Assembly: GCF_056746865.1 (NCBI RefSeq)
Contig: NZ_CM163382.1
Strand: one strand, 5' to 3'
DNA length: 64,000 nt
The notes under the pieces were generated by a model that saw only the letters and a program-made list of their open reading frames with translations, searched no databases and was not told the DNA's origin. This document shows positions 49,163 to 58,942 of this stretch, piece after piece (positions within the stretch are counted from its first letter, which is position 1; every line of letters starts with the position of its first letter). Both the position numbers and the translations under genes were made by a program.

Positions 49163-50014
49163 TCACTGTGCAGTTTTCGCTGATCGATTTTCAGCTCTAA
49201 ATTCAAGAACCGTTTCAATATTTCTTTCCTTCAGCATATCAATAACATTTTTATTCATTTGACTATCACTGGTTAATAACTGGTAAACGTTGCTTCTCTC
49301 TTTATCAGAATTTTCTTTAACAGCTGCTTTGCATGCCAAATGCTTATTGAAATTTTCTACATCGCTAGTACAGGAATTTACGGCTGCTGATGAAATATCA
49401 GACGCTGAAGAAACACCATCATCCAAACGTTTTATAGCATTTTCTATACATGAGTTAAGGGAATAAACGACAACTGAGCGATACCCTTCAGACGCACACC
49501 ATTCTAAATTTCTTGAAGGATCGAGTGGTTTTACTTCGCTGGATTGAATTAACTTGTCAAAAACTGACTTATATTCAATCTGTTTTTTATCTATAGCCCA
49601 TACTTCAGTAGCTGATTTATAATTCCCCGTATGCCTATTAACATCAAATCCATGTTTTATAAGCAAATCTGCCCATGAAAGATTTATTGATTCATTGTTA
49701 TGAGGCCATTTTCCTGTCAGAACCGCCCCCATAGACCCCATATATCCGCCATATGATGGTATAGCACCATGGCTCAGTAACTTCTCAGCAACCACAGGGC
49801 AATTAATTACATAAGAGGCGTAAAGCCCATTCCATAAAGCCCCTCTATAGTAATCGCCACGATTAGGTTCTTTTAAGTCGATAGCCTTTGATAATTGTTC
49901 ACACGTTTTGCATGCATCAAAGTTATCCTTATTGCATTGCAATGAACTGGCGGCTGTAGGATTTACAGAGACTATTGAAAGCACTATGCCAAAAAACAAA
50001 TTTATTTTTTTCAT
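49163..50014 (-). CDS. secreted Cys-rich protein of unknown function (283 aa), last gene of cargo operon
   Basis: N-terminal signal peptide (MKKINLFFGIVLSIVSVNPTAA); 8 Cys; strongly AT-rich codon usage; ATG one base after upstream stop (TAGGATG). Confidence 0.7.
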   Translation of the reverse strand: MKKINLFFGIVLSIVSVNPTAASSLQCNKDNFDACKTCEQLSKAIDLKEPNRGDYYRGALWNGLYASYVINCPVVAEKLLSHGAIPSYGGYMGSMGAVLTGKWPHNNESINLSWADLLIKHGFDVNRHTGNYKSATEVWAIDKKQIEYKSVFDKLIQSSEVKPLDPSRNLEWCASEGYRSVVVYSLNSCIENAIKRLDDGVSSASDISSAAVNSCTSDVENFNKHLACKAAVKENSDKERSNVYQLLTSDSQMNKNVIDMLKERNIETVLEFRAENRSAKTAQ

Positions 50015-50015
50015 C

Positions 50016-53000
50016 CTATTTCATCTGCTCTTCAACTTTATTTAGTAATGGTGATATCGCCCACAGATTCTGAAAAGGTAGCATTTTACGGACAGCGTGG
50101 GTTTGCTGGCTGTCAAATTCTCCGTTAAGTACACCATTTGCAACCGTCGCGGCATCACCGCCAAGATCAAAGGTAGGACCAAGTAAAGCACCAATAGCAT
50201 TACGACTCTGAAACCTTGATACCGGAGGCGCACCAAACATCGCGCCAAGACCAAACCTACCGCCGCTTATGTTCTCAACGGTATTCAGCGGCTCAGAGAG
50301 CCAGCCAAGCATTCCGCCCCGGTCGATCCCCTCTTTCACAAGGTTATTCCAGCTGTAGTCGATATCGCGACCGCTTAACTTCTGTTTCATCATATAGACC
50401 ATTGAGCCAAGCGCAATCGTGCCAAGCGCACCAAGATAGAATGAAGCATCGCCCTGCTGGATACCAGATACCAACACCCTGTTATGCTGTGCGAAGATAA
50501 ACGTTTTGAACTGCGTGATCATCTTCCAGCCTTCTTTACTAAAAAACAGCGGTGTATCACCTACGCCAGGCGTTACAATCACTGAGTCTACATCTTTCAG
50601 CACTGCAGACTGGAAAATCTCTCTAGCGAAACGGTCATCCCACAGATGACTATGCCCGGTTAACAGCCCGTCCATATCCTCTCCGTGCTTCCCGAATTGC
50701 TCCCCGATTCGGCGCAGAACATCTTCATTGATGCCGACCTGTGCCATCTTCCGCATTTCACTTTTGGCGAGCGTGCCACCAGCAGAAACCTGGCGAGCCG
50801 CGTCAAGTATCCTCGACTGCACTATCATCCCGGACCATGATTTAAGTGCGCTGTTCCACTGATTCATCAGCGTCCAGTTACCGAATTTCTGCGTCATCCA
50901 GTTCAGGCCTCGCTCAGCGGCGCTTCTCCGGCTATAGGGGTCAGTAAGATCCGCTATAGCCTTTGTACGCGTAGACAGGACATAATCAAGCCCAACGGCC
51001 ATTTCTCGCAAATCCCTGGTTGCAATTTTCACTGAGTCCATATTTTTAAGCATGCTTACCATTGGTCCGAGAGATTTTCTCAGGCCATGCTGCATCATCG
51101 GTCGCATCAGATCAGTTGCAGCGGAGACGGTCATTCCACCAAGCAAACGGAGGAAGTTAATATTCCTAGCAACTCGCCCGGCACGAACAAAGAAACTGCG
51201 TGGATCTTGAGGTGCGCCGTAAGTACCAAGCAGTCGGTCACGCATAGCCGTAATATCCCTAATATCAGCCTCCCGTTGCTTCTCAAGAGCTGCACGTCGT
51301 TTAGGTGTTTTAGCCTCTTTTATTAGCCGGGTATATTCCTCACTAACCTGACGGATTTGCTCCCCCATATCTTTACGGCCAAACTGCGCAGTCAGCTCAA
51401 TTTCTGGTGCCACCTGCCGGAGATAACTTTCCATGATGTAGTTAACATCTGATTCAAGAAAATCTTCTATACGCTCATCAGGAATAAGCAGCGTTCGGCT
51501 TTTAGTGAAACCAGCCCGACCAACGAGTCTCTCTGGGATAATATCGGCTGGTACAAGCCCGGAAGGTGCGCCTATTATTTTATTCACGATCTCGTCAGCA
51601 GCGTCCTCTGCTTCCTCTCGGGATAGAGGCTCCATCTGCTTCAGTGCTCGCTCGCGGCTTGCATTCAGCCTTGTGGTTGAATTTGCCCGTTTTTGCAGTC
51701 GGCGAAGCTCAGAACGATATTTCCGTGGATTATCCAGCAACTCCATATGGCGCTGATAGACAGGAAGCTCACTCTTTGCCTGCGCTATATCATCAAGGCG
51801 TGTTTTAAGGTCAGAGCTTTCTTTCATCATTCTTGCCTGAAGTTTTTCTGATGAAGTCTCGGCCAACTCTTTTTCTATTCTTGTAAGACGCGCCTGTGTG
51901 TCAGTCTCCTGAGATATAAGCTTATTTCGTTTATCCAGTTCTTCCATGAGTAGAATTTTTTTACCAGACCATTTCTCCGCTTCAGCGATTTCACTAGCGA
52001 GAGCATCAGCGCGCGGTGCCGATTCCTCTGCAGTTTTTAGCAATGAATTTATCCTTTCAATTCGCTGACCTGCTTTGTCAGCACCTTTGGCACTAATCCC
52101 TTGTATCCAGTTGGCAATTCGCCCTCTGAATTCAGTGCGGTCGGAAAGTATCTTATCGAACTTATAAATGCGGGGAAGATAACTTTTCGCCGTCACGACA
52201 TCGATATCCTCAGGAAGGATCCCCAGTTCCTGCATACGGGCTTTTGTGGTCTCGAAAATGGGGCGGATTCTGGCGGCTGCTTGTGAAACCTCAGGAATAT
52301 CACTCTGATCACCACGGCGCATAGCCATGCCAACAGCTTCATTGAAATCAATAAAGCTCATCCTCTTCACGCCGCGGGCGCTGACAGATTTGCTGTACTG
52401 CTGGTAAGCATCACGAGTGGCTTCCATCTGCTTATAAAGCATGGCGTCGTATTGCTTAATCTTAGTCTCGACTGCCGTAAACGTAGCCAACCCCTCATCA
52501 TTTTTGGCGAAGAAATAGTTATTTTCGGCAAGCTGCTGGTTAATCTGACGGGAGACAAGAGATGGTGATTGCGCCAAGCGGCCAGCAGGAGTGACACTCA
52601 ACGTTTTGTTAGCAAGTCCAAGTCCAGCGAGCTGTTCCTGATCGAGTGTGGTATTGAAAACCTGAGCTGCACCAATGCTTTGAGGAGAATCCATACCTCG
52701 CAAATGATTACCTACTGAGTTAACCACTGCCTCGCGCGCGCTAGGTCCAGCAAGTAGCTGTGCACCAGCACCAAGGATCCCACCAACGAGAGCATCAACA
52801 ACAACGTTCGATACGCTCTCCATCGGTGAGCGAGCTTCCTGAGTGGCCTGCAATGCGGCCTCTGAAGCAACACTGCCAGCAGCATTGGCTAAAGCAAAAC
52901 GTCCGGCTGTTTCTGCAATACGACCGCCACGAACGACAGCGCCGAACGGAATAAACATAGAAATCGCATTGAATGGATCTGCTAATCTCATTGCTACAGA

Positions 53001-53405
53001 AGAGACTGTACCAGCAAATCCCAAGCCTGAATTGTATTCCATGTCAGCTCTCTGCTGATCGATTCGATGTTTAATTGCCATTGTTTCTTCAGGCGAACCG
53101 GAGTTGATAAACGAATCTGCAAAATCTTCATAGCCTTTAATATCTGCTGCATCGTTATCAAATGGGTTATATCCTTCAATCCTGTCAAACTGACTGAAAG
53201 GAGCACTGGCAATAAAGCTACCCAGCGTGTTATCTATACGAAATGCTGCTTGTCTAGACCTTTGAACGCGTTGATCACTGGTAAATGGGTTCACAGCAGA
53301 AAGCAAAGAAGGTGTTTCCATATAGAAATTACTGTCATCAGGTGCTGCTATTTGCTGAATATCCTCGCCAAGCAACTCTTTAGGATCCTGTTCATATATC
53401 GGCAT
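50016..53405 (-). CDS. large protein of unknown function (1129 aa), predicted alpha-helical with Gly-rich hydrophobic C-terminal region
   Basis: long uninterrupted ORF; start overlaps upstream stop (TAATG); Q/A/E/R-rich; C-terminal hydrophobic/glycine-rich segments (GALGTIALGSMVYMM, GGRFGLGAMFGAPP); no NTPase motifs seen. Confidence 0.8.
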   Translation of the reverse strand: MPIYEQDPKELLGEDIQQIAAPDDSNFYMETPSLLSAVNPFTSDQRVQRSRQAAFRIDNTLGSFIASAPFSQFDRIEGYNPFDNDAADIKGYEDFADSFINSGSPEETMAIKHRIDQQRADMEYNSGLGFAGTVSSVAMRLADPFNAISMFIPFGAVVRGGRIAETAGRFALANAAGSVASEAALQATQEARSPMESVSNVVVDALVGGILGAGAQLLAGPSAREAVVNSVGNHLRGMDSPQSIGAAQVFNTTLDQEQLAGLGLANKTLSVTPAGRLAQSPSLVSRQINQQLAENNYFFAKNDEGLATFTAVETKIKQYDAMLYKQMEATRDAYQQYSKSVSARGVKRMSFIDFNEAVGMAMRRGDQSDIPEVSQAAARIRPIFETTKARMQELGILPEDIDVVTAKSYLPRIYKFDKILSDRTEFRGRIANWIQGISAKGADKAGQRIERINSLLKTAEESAPRADALASEIAEAEKWSGKKILLMEELDKRNKLISQETDTQARLTRIEKELAETSSEKLQARMMKESSDLKTRLDDIAQAKSELPVYQRHMELLDNPRKYRSELRRLQKRANSTTRLNASRERALKQMEPLSREEAEDAADEIVNKIIGAPSGLVPADIIPERLVGRAGFTKSRTLLIPDERIEDFLESDVNYIMESYLRQVAPEIELTAQFGRKDMGEQIRQVSEEYTRLIKEAKTPKRRAALEKQREADIRDITAMRDRLLGTYGAPQDPRSFFVRAGRVARNINFLRLLGGMTVSAATDLMRPMMQHGLRKSLGPMVSMLKNMDSVKIATRDLREMAVGLDYVLSTRTKAIADLTDPYSRRSAAERGLNWMTQKFGNWTLMNQWNSALKSWSGMIVQSRILDAARQVSAGGTLAKSEMRKMAQVGINEDVLRRIGEQFGKHGEDMDGLLTGHSHLWDDRFAREIFQSAVLKDVDSVIVTPGVGDTPLFFSKEGWKMITQFKTFIFAQHNRVLVSGIQQGDASFYLGALGTIALGSMVYMMKQKLSGRDIDYSWNNLVKEGIDRGGMLGWLSEPLNTVENISGGRFGLGAMFGAPPVSRFQSRNAIGALLGPTFDLGGDAATVANGVLNGEFDSQQTHAVRKMLPFQNLWAISPLLNKVEEQMK

Positions 53406-56152
53406 TATTTGCCCCCTGCGTATATATTGCTCGGAAGGTAATTGGCTGAACCATAACCGAATGGTTTGGTCAGATCTGGAGGAGTATATCCATCTTTATT
53501 GCTGAACTGCGGCAGCGGATTGCCTTCTCTCCGCACTCTAGCCTCATCAACACGCTGTTGCTGGAACTGAATGGTTTGCCTGTACATTGGAGATGTCAGC
53601 TGATCCGGCTTGAAACGAACAGGGAGACCATTTTCTCCAATATAATTTCTCGGTTCTATCGCTCCGTTTGCGTCAGGCTGTAAAACCATAACAGCATAAC
53701 TCCTATCCCTTGCCGTAAGGCCATCAGAAACAAGTATTAAGTCCGTATCACTGCGAGGACCGCCAAAGGATTTTGATTTAAGCTCGCGTTTTTCCTGCTC
53801 CCACTGCCCCTGTATCCAGTTACCAGCACCATTATTTACTCCGTACAATGCCTCAGGTGCATACTTCATAACCTCTGCTTTGCCATTAACCGTAGAAACT
53901 CCCCAGGTGGTTCTGATCATGGCATTGGTCATTTTCTCAGCCTGTTCTGCATCGCCACCTGTCTGTACAAAGTTAGCATCGTAAATTGTCTGGTAATCTC
54001 GCTGATAGGCCGCATTTGATTTTCCTGGATCGGTAATATCCGGAGACCACGAACCAAAGGAAGTCAGACTGCTGGCGTTATTTTGTGCAGCAGTTACCCT
54101 CGCCGCGACATATTTTTTGTCTCGCATGGCAGTGGAAAGCATCTGTTTCATTCGGTCATCCTGTTGGAACACCTGACTGTAAGCCATATCAACAGCCTTA
54201 TCCTCCGGCACGCCAGCGCGGGAATAATCGTAAACCTTGCCATAAAATGCCATCGTACTTTTATCAAGTGTTGCCGCTGCCGCCGGATTATTATCGAATA
54301 ACTGACCGTAGAATTTTGCCATCGGGACAACCAGCGCAGGATCTCTTGATGTTGCTCCACTGTTAAGCATTGTTTTAACCTGAGTTGGTATCATGCCGCT
54401 TTTAGTTGTGACGGTGACCAGTGTATTGATGCTCTGCGGATCAGATATGGAAAACGAAGGCGCGATATCCTGCGCGAAATAACGGTCTACCGCTGCCTGA
54501 TTGTTTTTGTCGTTCGGGTCCAGCGGGAAGTTATTTTGCATTGAAGACACGAACCTGTTTCTTCCCTGCTGAATCTCCCACTCCCTATCCATCTCTTTAA
54601 ATTTGGCCTGCATTTTCTCCCAGCGTTGCTGGTTAGCAGCAAATCCAGGAGCATTTGGATCCTGTGGACGTAAACGTTCAAGAATGTCTTGTCGTCCTTC
54701 TGGAGTGAGGTCTTTAGCGGCACCAATGACACCTCCATATTGTATCTGCGCCTGCATATCCTTCCACTTCATAGCGCCAATGCGCGGACCATTGGCCCGG
54801 ATAAAATCGTCCTCAGAAGGTAACTTCTCAGGTTTCAATCCTTCATCAAGGGCTGAATATGCATCTTTAACTACGGTGCTAAGCTGGTCCGCATACTGCT
54901 GGCGGTACTGATTTCTCAGCTCATTAGCCTGCCTCAATGCCTGTATTTGCATTTGAGGGCTCATAGCATCAAATGCCGCATTGCCCGTATAACGCTTAGG
55001 TGAATCAAGGTTAGTTAGACCAAGGGCTGCCGAGATACCAGTTTCAAGCTGTTCGGTGCTATAAGGCATACTGCCATTTTCGTGTTTAATAATCCCAGCA
55101 CATAAAGCAGCTAGTGTCTTTGGGTTAGAGATATCAAGCTGATCATTCTCCCCAACACCAAGCTCACCACACAATGCCCTAATATAAGCATCAGTATTAT
55201 TACCATCACTAGCCGGAGCATAGCGATTAACAATCTCGCTAACGGTGTCATAGCCTTGACGCTGGTAAGACAACATATTTTTACCCAACGCGCGGATTCC
55301 ATGCTCAGGGGTAGCAAACGTTGCAAAACGTCCATCGCTACCGATCTGACCTTCCCACGGGTTAGATTTGCTCGCTTCAATATTACCAGGGTTATTATTA
55401 CGTAAACCACGAGCATCCAATGAATTACCATGTGATATTGCACGACTCACACCATCAAGATCCCCTGGCTCTCCATTAACCTGAAGAAACTCGTTGTATT
55501 TTTGAGCGATATTTCCTATCCATGCTTGCTGCCCCATTTGTTCCTTGAGCTGAGTTTTCTGCTGAACACGCCACTCATCAGGAAGCCCATGCGCATCAGC
55601 GTATTGATCAATAGATTCAAATCGCTGCTTGGCTAAATCGACAAATGCTTGGTTATAGCTATATAGCCCCGCAGACTGAGTGACAGCCAATGCATTTCCT
55701 GACAAATACGTTTGATCTTGGAATTGCTGAAACTGCCCAACTTCATATCGACGTGCCTGATTGTAATAAGACTGCATAGACTGCTGGAGTTGAAAGGATA
55801 ATTTATTCCTTTCCTCACTTTCAGGGATTGAGCCTAATAATGCCTGAGCCCTTTCCTGCATATTTTTCATAACAGCGTCACTCTGACCAAGAGCGTTTTT
55901 ACCCTGTTTAGAAATCAGCCCATTTTCAGGGTTGTTAATCTGGTCATCTGCAAATTGGTTAAATTGCAGTAACGCCTCCTGGGCCATAGCAACATTCGCT
56001 TTCTGCCTGGCTTCACCATATGCCACCGCATACTGATCTGCGACATTCGCCAGCACCTGACCTGCTTGAGGAACATCGAAGGTCTGAAAACCACCGGTTT
56101 GCACACCACGACTTTGCACCTGGCGTCCGGATGTAGTAGGAACAACAAGCAT
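53405..56152 (-). CDS. large protein of unknown function (915 aa), Q/N/A-rich
   Basis: ATG at 56152 preceded by TAGGAGGT Shine-Dalgarno; contains conserved-looking block RGLRNNNPGNIEASKSNPWEGQ...; no NTPase motifs seen. Confidence 0.8.
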   Translation of the reverse strand: MLVVPTTSGRQVQSRGVQTGGFQTFDVPQAGQVLANVADQYAVAYGEARQKANVAMAQEALLQFNQFADDQINNPENGLISKQGKNALGQSDAVMKNMQERAQALLGSIPESEERNKLSFQLQQSMQSYYNQARRYEVGQFQQFQDQTYLSGNALAVTQSAGLYSYNQAFVDLAKQRFESIDQYADAHGLPDEWRVQQKTQLKEQMGQQAWIGNIAQKYNEFLQVNGEPGDLDGVSRAISHGNSLDARGLRNNNPGNIEASKSNPWEGQIGSDGRFATFATPEHGIRALGKNMLSYQRQGYDTVSEIVNRYAPASDGNNTDAYIRALCGELGVGENDQLDISNPKTLAALCAGIIKHENGSMPYSTEQLETGISAALGLTNLDSPKRYTGNAAFDAMSPQMQIQALRQANELRNQYRQQYADQLSTVVKDAYSALDEGLKPEKLPSEDDFIRANGPRIGAMKWKDMQAQIQYGGVIGAAKDLTPEGRQDILERLRPQDPNAPGFAANQQRWEKMQAKFKEMDREWEIQQGRNRFVSSMQNNFPLDPNDKNNQAAVDRYFAQDIAPSFSISDPQSINTLVTVTTKSGMIPTQVKTMLNSGATSRDPALVVPMAKFYGQLFDNNPAAAATLDKSTMAFYGKVYDYSRAGVPEDKAVDMAYSQVFQQDDRMKQMLSTAMRDKKYVAARVTAAQNNASSLTSFGSWSPDITDPGKSNAAYQRDYQTIYDANFVQTGGDAEQAEKMTNAMIRTTWGVSTVNGKAEVMKYAPEALYGVNNGAGNWIQGQWEQEKRELKSKSFGGPRSDTDLILVSDGLTARDRSYAVMVLQPDANGAIEPRNYIGENGLPVRFKPDQLTSPMYRQTIQFQQQRVDEARVRREGNPLPQFSNKDGYTPPDLTKPFGYGSANYLPSNIYAGGK

Positions 56153-56248: not shown

Positions 56249-56455
56249 TTACTCACCCCCCGATGCAAAACCATTCTGATTAAGCCAGGCGTTTACGGCA
56301 TGTCTGACAATCTGCGCCACGCCTGGTAATGGCTGATCAGGGTGATTGTTCACATGGTCGATTCTGTACTGCTTAAGGCGCATCACGGTCTGTGCATCCA
56401 GATGAACGGAACCACCTCTGACATCGCCTGTGTTCAGGTCGTTAATACAATTCAC
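56249..56455 (-). CDS. small protein of unknown function (68 aa), first gene of cargo operon, GTG start
   Basis: GTG start preceded by AAGAGGAAA Shine-Dalgarno at optimal spacing; AT-rich putative promoter region upstream (56456-56554). Confidence 0.55.
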   Translation of the reverse strand: MNCINDLNTGDVRGGSVHLDAQTVMRLKQYRIDHVNNHPDQPLPGVAQIVRHAVNAWLNQNGFASGGE

Positions 56456-56554
56456 AGCAATTTCCTCTTACTGACTAAACTATGCACATTATTGATCTGA
56501 AAAAGTGGTAGATAAACATATTTCTATCACAAAAACAGATTAATTGATTTCAGC

Positions 56555-56580
56555 CAAAAAAAAGCCGGATTGCTCCGGCT
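56555..56580 (-). terminator. rho-independent terminator on minus strand (agccgga-ttgc-tccggct with A-run on + strand)
   Basis: read directly; separates the IS200/IS605 element from the cargo-operon promoter. Confidence 0.6.
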
Positions 56581-56785
56581 CTGTGCTTACTTCTGGTAGT
56601 TACGCCATACTGATTTCCCGATCCCATCTATCCCCATTTCTTTTTCAGTGCGTTTAAGCGACCGTTTCAGGTCTTCTAAATTATCCGGTTGCTTCGGTGG
56701 CCTCTGTGCCTTCCTGGAACATTCCAGTCGTCGCATTGATATTTGACATCCTCCACGCCCTGAAGGACGTGGATTCCTGCTACGT

Positions 56786-57994
56786 TCAGGCTGTCGCCTG
56801 AATCATTTCGGTGGGTTCCTGCTTCAACGGGCGGCCTGACTGCACCATCCCTCCACAGGCAAGAACGGCGTGCCCCGCCGCTAAAATGTTACGAGCGCCG
56901 TTTACATCGGCGTTCGCTGTATATCCACATACCTGGCATCTGAATTGACTTTGTGACAGGCGATTTTCTTTCGCTGTATGACCACAGCACGCGCAACGCT
57001 GGCTTGTGTACGCTGGCGGAACAGCAAGCACCTGACCGCCACACCAGAGCTGCTTGTACTCAAGCTGACGGCGCATTTCATACCAGCCCTGATCCAGTAT
57101 CGAACGGTTTAAACCTGATTTTGCCCGGACATTGCGCCCCGGCTGGCTGACCGTACCCGAGGCTGACTTTGACATGTTGCTGACCTTCAAATCCTCAATG
57201 ACTATCATTGCGTGGTTTTTGCTGATGGTCGTTGTGACTTTGTGAAGGTAGTCCCTGCGGATATTTGCGATACGGGAATGCAGTCGCTGTATTTTGCGTT
57301 TCTGCTTCTGCCAGTTGTTGCTGAATTTAACCTTGCGGCTTAACTGGCGCTGAAGTCTCGCCAGCTTCTTCTGGTTTTTATGAAAACTGTTTACAGGCTC
57401 AAAGACCGTGCCATCTGACAGCGTGGCGAGTTTAGCCACGCCAGCATCCAGCCCGACCATTAATGCTGAAGGGTGAACCGGAGTTGATACTTCACTTTCT
57501 GTCTGAATACTGATGTACCACTTACCGCAGGACTGGCTGACAGTGACATTTTTCACAACACCCGTGACCTGACGGCTGTTCCGGTAGCGCATCCAGCCCA
57601 GTTTCGGCAGAAAAATACGGCTGTTTTCCTGATCGAGCTTAACACCCTGCGGATAGCGGAATGCATCATGCTGTCCCCGCTTTTTGAATCGGGGAAAAGC
57701 GGCACGCTTCTGAAAGAAATTTTTGTAGGCTCGCTCAAGGTCTTTCAGTGACTGCTGCAATGGCTGTGAGGGAGAATCTTTAAGCCATTGCGTTTCAGTA
57801 GCATTTTTCCATTCAACCAGCCAGGAAGTCATCTTTGCATAAGAAATATATTTGTTCCCGGCCTCATGATTCTCATTCTGAAGCGCCAGAGCACGATTGA
57901 AAACGAAACGACATGCGCCCGCGAAGCGCCTCATTTCACGCTCCTGTTTTCCATTTGGTCTTAACTGGAATTTGAAAGCTTGTAGTCGTTTCAT
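56786..57994 (-). CDS. tnpB: TnpB (OrfB), RuvC-like RNA-guided nuclease of IS200/IS605 elements
   Basis: 402-aa ORF; C-terminal zinc-finger cysteines (CACCGH...CQVCGY) and RuvC-like blocks. Confidence 0.85.
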
Positions 57995-58016
57995 ATGCCA
58001 AATTATACTTTGGCCT

Positions 58017-58433
58017 ATGAAAAAAGAAACCGATATCCGACGTGGAAGGCACTGTGTCTTCCTGATGCACGTTCACCTGGTCTTTGTTACCAAGTACCGA
58101 CGCCAGATTTTTGACCATGACGCAATAGAAAAACTACGCACTTACTTTTCAAGTGTATGTGCTGATTTTGAAGCTGAACTGGTTGAAATGGATGGAGAAC
58201 GAGATCACGTTCACCTGCTAATTAACTATCCTCCCAAATTGGCGATATCCACCCTGGTGAACAGTCTCAAGGGCGTATCGAGTAGATTATTGCGACGAGA
58301 TCGACCAGATATTGCAGTCAGGTATTACTACAAAGGCGTTTTATGGAGTCCCAGCTATTTTGCCAGTAGCTGCGGAGGTGCGCCAATATCCATCATCCGC
58401 CAATACATTGAACAACAGCAAACACCTAGTTAG
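58017..58433 (+). CDS. tnpA: IS200/IS605 TnpA, Y1 HuH transposase
   Basis: ORF 57897..58433; preferred ATG at 58017 (MKKETDIRRGRH...); HuH motifs (HVHLVF, HVHLLI) and C-terminal catalytic Tyr region (RQYIEQQ). Confidence 0.85.
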   Translation: MKKETDIRRGRHCVFLMHVHLVFVTKYRRQIFDHDAIEKLRTYFSSVCADFEAELVEMDGERDHVHLLINYPPKLAISTLVNSLKGVSSRLLRRDRPDIAVRYYYKGVLWSPSYFASSCGGAPISIIRQYIEQQQTPS

Positions 58434-58516
58434 GTGGAAAACCGCGCCTTATATCCCCGACCTGAAGGACGGGGCTTTACGGCGCACTGGGTAATTACTC
58501 TGTTCGCTGTTGTGAA

Positions 58517-58942
58517 TTAAAACGGTATCCCGTCCCCGTACGGATCATCGTGCTGGCCTGTCTGTTGCTTTGCCCTGTTCAGTGCATCAGTAGCCTGCCC
58601 CTGCTGGCCTTTTTTGCCGCCCGGTCGCGCCGTTCGCGCACTGATTACGCTGTCTGCGATAACCTGCCATCCCTGCCTCGTTTCGCCGTTCTGGCCCGTC
58701 CACCAGCTCACCTGCATGTTACCGGCCACGCTCACCAGTTCGCCTTTGTGGTGTTTTGCCAGTGCGTCAGCCTGTCTGCCAAACGCCAGGACGGATAACC
58801 ACATCGTCGCCGTTCCGTCATCTGTCTGATTGCATGGAAGGGGGACCGCCATACTCGCCATCGCCATTTGTGTGCCCTTGCTGGTGGTCTTTAACTGCGG
58901 GTCAGCCACCAGCCGCCCGTAAGCTGATATTTGCGCCGTCAT
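58517..58942 (-). CDS. ssb: single-stranded DNA-binding protein (SSB-like), 141 aa
   Basis: OB-fold-like sequence and C-terminal acidic tip ending ...DDPYGDGIPF (compare E. coli SSB ...DDDIPF). Confidence 0.75.
   Translation of the reverse strand: MTAQISAYGRLVADPQLKTTSKGTQMAMASMAVPLPCNQTDDGTATMWLSVLAFGRQADALAKHHKGELVSVAGNMQVSWWTGQNGETRQGWQVIADSVISARTARPGGKKGQQGQATDALNRAKQQTGQHDDPYGDGIPF

Follow-up and report, generated by a model that had tools for sequence, protein, structure and literature searches.

The stretch of DNA analysed here, called the window, covers 64,000 nucleotides of contig NZ_CM163382.1 (NCBI RefSeq assembly GCF_056746865.1). It holds a single copy of an IS609-like element of the IS200/IS605 family, in which a transposase gene (tnpA) and a gene for an RNA-guided nuclease homologue (tnpB) are read divergently. 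The element follows the host ssb gene, and beyond its other end come a remnant of perC, a terminator and large cargo genes. The features of the locus, in window positions, are the following.

56561..56582, minus strand: native intrinsic terminator of perC, outside the IS (terminator scan; hairpin and T-run)
56587..56742, minus strand: perC-like 3' remnant, host (Pfam PerC positions 41-88 of 90, E = 4e-14)
56727..56742, minus strand: predicted guide ATATCAATGCGACGAC, host DNA directly 3' of the right end (from TnpB biology)
56743..58490, minus strand (the active or top strand, tnpB sense): IS609-like IS200/IS605 element, 1748 bp (ends compared with an identical copy and IS-free relatives)
56743..56785, minus strand: right end, RE (DNA fold z = -3.1; hairpin covariation in 56 loci), with guide GAAT at 56773-56776, hairpin at 56753-56772 and terminal cleavage site TCAA at 56743-56746
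56743..56880, minus strand: predicted omega-RNA scaffold, its 5' end uncertain, perhaps at ~56913 (sub-threshold Rfam matches, covariation, fold)
56786..57994, minus strand: tnpB, RNA-guided nuclease homologue, 402 aa (three Pfam domains, alignment to ISDra2 TnpB)
58017..58433, plus strand: tnpA, Y1 HUH transposase, 138 aa (Pfam Y1_Tnp, E = 3.5e-42)
58434..58490, minus strand: left end, LE (DNA fold -14.3 kcal/mol, z = -3.2), with guide AAAG at 58475-58478, core hairpin at 58455-58474 and extended imperfect palindrome at 58444-58485
58491..58494, minus strand: host TTAC, left cleavage and target site (CL) and predicted TnpB TAM (empty sites, other copies)
58517..58942, minus strand: host ssb (Pfam SSB; RefSeq annotation in relatives), its stop 22 nt upstream of TTAC

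The element, its genes and its copies

The initial annotation had assigned the element to the IS200/IS605 family, with tnpA and tnpB both intact and divergent, and this is borne out by Pfam domains, full-length alignments and retained catalytic residues. TnpA is a Y1 HUH transposase that matches TnpA of IS608 (ISHp608, Helicobacter pylori) distantly (phmmer E = 5e-21). The alignment with this protein (2a6m) runs over the full length, and the HUH motif (HVH) and the catalytic tyrosine (RQYIEQQ) are kept, a further likeness to IS608. The accessory protein TnpB (OrfB_IS605), identical to RefSeq WP_072859362.1, carries the Pfam domains HTH_OrfB_IS605, OrfB_IS605 and Cas12f1-like_TNB. Its alignment with ISDra2 TnpB (8bf8/8exa) is likewise full-length (E = 1.8e-55) and retains all catalytic residues of the RuvC-like D/E/D triad together with the two CxxC pairs of the zinc ribbon, although 15 additional residues are inserted behind the RuvC glutamate in the window protein.

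The start codons of tnpB and tnpA are separated by 22 bp. Most of this gap is occupied by a perfect 6-bp inverted repeat, GCCAAA-TTATAC-TTTGGC (57997-58014), which could be a regulatory site. A scan for sigma-70-like promoters returned 3 sites against 3.6 expected, and no minus-strand site within the IS. In IS609-proper copies, the annotated tnpA start lies 15 nt further upstream and yields a protein of 143 aa, whereas the window tnpA starts 5 codons later (138 aa).

IS609 of E. coli (insQ/tnpA, for example at the ydcO-ydcL locus) shares the organisation and the length of the window element. Nucleotide identity between the two is 94.5-95%, with 95-96% for TnpB and 92-93% for TnpA, and the right end is the same, terminating in GTCAA. 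A megablast search of 5,426 complete E. coli genomes with window positions 56400-58600 matched 5,564 records, in each case only from query position 336-344 to 2095. Two copies were 100% identical, both plasmid-borne, and copies of at least 99% identity were rare (8 records) among these genomes. Other matching copies are IS609 at ~95% identity, annotated as InsQ/TnpB and IS609-family TnpA. In PMC12781874, the TnpB of IS609 is reported only to have been purified as one of a set of candidates.

The nearest copies (97-100%; matches H1-H9, including L001, L003 and L004) all reside on E. coli plasmids of 60-94 kb, and phage genes (tail protein, KilAC antirepressor) adjoin the IS in at least two of these plasmids. 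The ~95% IS609 copies have a chromosomal location.

Ends, target site and predicted guide RNA

The window copy was compared, in tnpB sense, with the 100% identical copy on plasmid NZ_AP027794 (L001) and with seven others (L003-L009), and its flanks with IS-free relatives of the host island in strains GF4 (L002) and CS5L (L131). In this sense, the left junction reads ...GAGTAATTAC followed by CCAGTGCGCC, and the right junction GGATGTCAA followed by ATATCAATGCGAC. Because both junctions are fixed by these copies and by the IS-free relatives, the element is taken to be 56743-58490, or 1748 bp. The initial annotation had given a span of 56555-58500 and had asked for the ends to be settled by such a comparison with copies and empty sites. 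Conserved end structures are present at both ends, and the left limit of that span proves to lie 188 bp too far out, as bases 56555-56742 are host DNA also found in IS-free relatives. The trinucleotide ATA (56740-56742) was considered as IS sequence and rejected, being a chance match to L001 and host DNA in both GF4 and CS5L.

The terminator had also been read as part of the insertion. This was rejected, as the hairpin and T-run at 56561-56582 are the native perC terminator, and the 46-nt stretch that holds it (56550-56595) is identical in IS-free GF4 and CS5L. Since this terminator separates the replication module from the cargo genes in IS-free relatives already, the IS does not newly uncouple them, contrary to what had been proposed. 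The perC remnant, which holds a 49-aa ORF from an internal Met at 56736, is continuous with the perC of both relatives, where the gene is annotated as frameshifted.

On the minus strand, the left end starts directly after TTAC with 12 nt, the guide AAAG and a hairpin, CCCCG-TCCTTCAGGT-CGGGG. The right end consists of GAAT, a hairpin (CCACGTCC-TTCA-GGGCGTGG), AGGATG and the terminal TCAA. The two subterminal hairpins are alike (stem-CCTGAAGGA-stem), one per end and on the same strand, in agreement with the initial annotation. Across the 64 kb, the 11-mer CCTGAAGGACG is matched perfectly at exactly two places, one near each end (56759 and 58461) and both on the same strand, and both DNA hairpins fold better than shuffles (z about -3). 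The ends thus carry imperfect palindromes in the same orientation, without terminal inverted repeats. Hairpin-to-end distances are asymmetric, with 16 nt on the left and 10 nt on the right.

TTAC adjoins the left end in the window copy, L001 and L004, and the assignment is ambiguous by one base in L003. In the IS-free relatives, TTAC is present once at this position (GAGTAATTAC followed by AGGGG in GF4 and CS5L), indicating insertion 3' of TTAC without target duplication as far as the left side shows, since the right flank of the window copy comes from 983 bp away. A guide tetranucleotide with a predicted role in cleavage stands 5' of each hairpin. On the left, AAAG accompanies a TTAC flank in the window copy, L001 and L004, whereas the five sampled IS609-proper copies (~95%) combine AAAA with TTAT. 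This covariation between LE guide and target holds in 8 of the 9 copies, the left end of L003 being divergent. On the right, the guide that goes with TCAA is GAAT here and GGAT in IS609 copies. Every copy ends in GTCAA, followed by an unrelated flank.

GAAT is also the right-end guide of IS608. In that element, TTAC is read by AAAG, and TCAA lies 10 nt from the foot of the right hairpin (PMC3201880); the window element resembles it in TTAC, AAAG and the placement of TCAA. The two differ in that tnpA and tnpB are co-directional in IS608 and divergent here, as in IS605, and in the distance from TTAC to the core left hairpin, which is 19 nt in IS608 and 16 nt here. Judged by sequence, the end architecture is that of the IS608 plan. 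As in other members of the family, TnpA would recognise the minus-strand hairpins near both ends and cleave 3' of two tetranucleotides: the flanking TTAC, which the LE guide AAAG reads, and the terminal TCAA, which the RE guide GAAT reads. The element would then move as a single-stranded circle.

An Rfam scan of positions 56300-58800 in E-value mode returned three matches, which all fall on the minus strand in the region of the tnpB 3' end and RE: HgcC (RF00062; 56730-56853, E = 0.001, 27.3 bits against a gathering threshold of 50), RAGATH-18 (RF03064; 56816-56859, E = 0.016, 28.1 bits against 44.9) and sot0042 (RF02656; 56752-56913, E = 0.053, 18.7 bits against 88). As all three scores fall below the gathering threshold, the predicted omega-RNA is not a member of these families by Rfam criteria. 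The likeness consists of a CCUUCAGG hairpin, a GGAGGAxGUCA tail and a CCUGUGGAG...GAAGCAGG helix, on the same strand and overlapping the predicted omega-RNA. HgcC, sot0042 and RAGATH-18 have been tied to TnpB guide RNAs (PMC4615843, PMC11061315).

A degenerate RE motif, TTCAGGNCGNGGAGGANGTCAA, was found at 120 loci or more in bacteria and archaea, each followed by a different flank; what follows GTCAA bears no relation from one copy to the next, nor among the 121 RE-motif matches. Across 56 loci, the terminal hairpin is 95% paired, and its double-change cells number 34, compared with 15.4 +/- 4.5 for shuffles. In a 190-nt alignment of 18 homologues with the GAAGCAGGAACCCACCGA block, 11 of the 21 consensus pairs show compensatory changes. 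The consensus helices fall at 56880-56866, 56859-56856 with 56821-56818, 56811/56810 with 56777/56776, 56806-56804 with 56784-56782, and 56773-56752, and the single-sequence RNA fold of the scaffold region gives z = -2.7. Covariation and the sub-threshold Rfam matches thus indicate a conserved structured RNA that overlaps the tnpB 3' end and RE.

The Rfam matches, the RE-motif loci and the covariation in hairpin and alignment support a scaffold of at least 56880-56743, with ATATCAATGCGACGAC as the guide and TTAC as the TAM. The initial annotation had expected an omega RNA on the minus strand at about 56700-56900, close to the scaffold at 56743-56880, and had called for its flank-derived guide to be identified; the predicted guide now occupies 56742-56727. 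A 12-mer of the guide occurs once in the window.

The predicted arrangement follows that of ISDra2, whose omega-RNA (reRNA) has a scaffold overlapping both the 3' end of tnpB and the right end and takes its guide from the flank. The TAMs differ, TTGAT in ISDra2 against the predicted TTAC here. ISDra2 TnpB is TAM-dependent (PMC8612924). In the window element, the scaffold would comprise the last ~100 nt of tnpB and RE. Continuing 3' into the flank, the RNA would acquire ATATCAATGCGACGAC as a guide that directs TnpB to cleave vacant sites flanked by TTAC, which would favour retention of the element. We infer that the predicted omega-RNA is transcribed and used by TnpB for cleavage. Because the island genes and tnpB all run in one direction, read-through from ssb could drive both tnpB and the omega-RNA.

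In several genome-contig matches to the RE motif (L014, L015, L074, L089, L091, L092, L121 and L127), an LE-like 5' part (CGCCGTAAAG/AAAA before the hairpin) is fused to an RE tail (AGGATGTCAA). This suggests reuse of the hairpin module by related elements or miniature derivatives.

A deletion between two TTAC sites

A search with the joined flanks of the element found 43 E. coli genomes that contain both (at least 80% of the joined query). In each of the best 25 of these 43 genomes, the distance between the flanks exceeds that in the window by ~983 bp. Window positions 56743-58490 replace exactly positions 3595-4577 of L002 and 2104-3086 of L131, a segment of 983 bp. In these two relatives, the segment contains a ProQ/FinO gene (Pfam ProQ, E = 1.3e-24), a 138-aa ORF without a Pfam match and the 5' part of perC.

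The left breakpoint lies 22 nt past ssb, between GAGTAATTAC and AGGGG, and the right one inside perC, between GGTATTAC and ATATCAATG. Both fall directly 3' of TTAC on the same strand and are identical whether taken from GF4 or CS5L. A top-strand TTAC precedes only 6 of the 983 positions of the deleted segment, so that a breakpoint would follow TTAC by chance in ~0.6% of cases. With both breakpoints directly 3' of a same-strand TTAC, the deletion bears the site specificity of the transposase. This copy therefore marks an IS-associated deletion in which the DNA between two TTAC sites is gone, and the breakpoints point to a deletion mediated by the IS.

The initial annotation had described an element inserted between ssb and the cargo operon. 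Its location stands, as the IS does sit between ssb and the downstream genes. However, a simple insertion that brought its own terminator is refuted by the breakpoint comparison with GF4 and CS5L and is hardly credible: the window lacks 983 bp that every close IS-free relative examined possesses, and the terminator together with 56555-56742 is host sequence shared with those relatives.

Most likely, the deletion arose through two insertions followed by recombination. Elements would have inserted in the same orientation at both TTAC sites, and homologous recombination between the copies would then have removed the intervening DNA. Among 5,426 complete E. coli genomes, no intermediate with the IS at one or at two sites was found, and the LE and RE junctions of the window copy were both absent. 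Exact-match scans likewise found neither junction in a metagenome collection, and no RE junction in a collection of species-representative genomes.

It is unlikely, though worth weighing, that a single copy at the ssb-proximal TTAC sufficed and that TnpA itself made the deletion in one step. By this route, TnpA would have cut after TCAA and after the TTAC in perC, joined RE to ATATCAATG and released a 983-nt circle. Both breakpoints show exact TnpA cleavage specificity on the same strand, and the chemistry would mirror that of integration, in which RE and the target TTAC are cleaved and exchanged (PMC3201880). The failure of genome and metagenome scans to find a two-copy intermediate also speaks for it. 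However, five nearer top-strand TTACs would have been passed over, and the TTAC that flanks the element itself should compete for the LE guide. A literature search for one-step adjacent deletions by IS200/IS605 elements found no precedent. Recombination between IS copies is also simpler, and displaced flanks are seen in a plasmid with four IS places.

This plasmid, pLH50-c-C, carries a second IS609-like copy (L132, NZ_CP100503.1 38300-45100) whose flanks appear to be non-adjacent in IS-free relatives. A truncated helicase-related gene contains the TTAC that its left end abuts; this left flank was not found in an IS-free plasmid. In IS-free P1-like plasmids (L133 18689), the right flank comes directly after the TTAC of an icd-like gene, and the two flanks seem to sit there as separate places. 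With its four IS places, pLH50-c-C is ~30 kb shorter than typical P1-like plasmids. Given this related pattern, IS-mediated rearrangement looks routine for the IS609-like element.

The two deletion sites, GAGTAATTAC and GGTATTAC, have ATTAC in common, and a microhomology deletion would therefore yield the same junction. Slippage between these 5-bp direct repeats could have removed the segment first, after which the IS simply inserted at the resulting TTAC. This order of events is quite improbable: adjacent flanks without an IS occur in 0 of the best 25 E. coli records, in which the two pieces are ~983 bp apart, and the IS would have had to choose, by chance, this one TTAC among tens of thousands per genome. 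Insertion at both TTAC sites and recombination between the copies is therefore favoured over the slippage route.

The host island and wider meaning

In relatives, the host DNA belongs to an integrative island of ~19 kb with genes for an integrase, AlpA, an Icd-like protein, a DUF927 primase, SSB, ProQ/FinO and PerC, as well as variable large genes. The island may replicate on its own. A search of plasmids with each host flank returned partial relatives only.

Other parts of the island also merit description. Between the perC terminator and the cargo genes lies a 68-aa ORF (WP_000995640.1; 56249-56455, minus strand) that is kept in all relatives and has no match in Pfam or PADLOC. Three large cargo ORFs (283, 1129 and 915 aa; 49163-56152, minus strand) are matched at 99.8% identity in other E. 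coli chromosomes. PADLOC gave no match for these large proteins and Pfam almost none, and the annotations under the cargo matches include a 'virion core protein, T7 gp14 family' and a DUF919 protein. This P4/PICI-like island may thus carry T7-like internal-core proteins. Close relatives of the island differ in their cargo: identity to GF4 ends at about window position 56100, whereas CS5L has the 915-aa gene. From these alignments, the region downstream of perC looks like a variable hotspot.

In summary, window positions 56743-58490 are very probably an intact IS609-like element (IS200/IS605 family) that works in the manner of IS608 and marks an IS-associated deletion. The type of element, with TnpB and omega-RNA, is already known, none of its features is unexpected for the family, and the TTAC-to-TTAC deletion alone is mildly unusual. 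For annotation, the gain is that the IS measures 1748 bp, not ~1950 bp, and that neither the terminator nor the perC fragment is part of it, both being host-island sequence. Lost from the island are a gene of the ProQ/FinO RNA-binding type, the 138-aa ORF and the 5' part of perC, a gene that relatives already carry in frameshifted form.

In L002 and L131, the two IS-free sibling islands examined, the predicted target (TTAC plus ATATCAATGCGACGAC) corresponds to the intact perC site; it would also form the vacant joint of the window copy upon excision. Because the predicted guide matches this perC allele, TnpB of the window copy could cut sibling islands. If TnpA did catalyse the deletion from a single copy, the guide match to the sibling-island allele would follow from the deletion itself, and the element would possess a one-step adjacent-deletion activity. 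With its end, TAM (TTAC) and guide defined, the locus offers a directly testable native E. coli pair of TnpB and omega-RNA, and its breakpoints, which run exactly from TTAC to TTAC, exemplify the remodelling of small mobile islands by IS200/IS605 elements.
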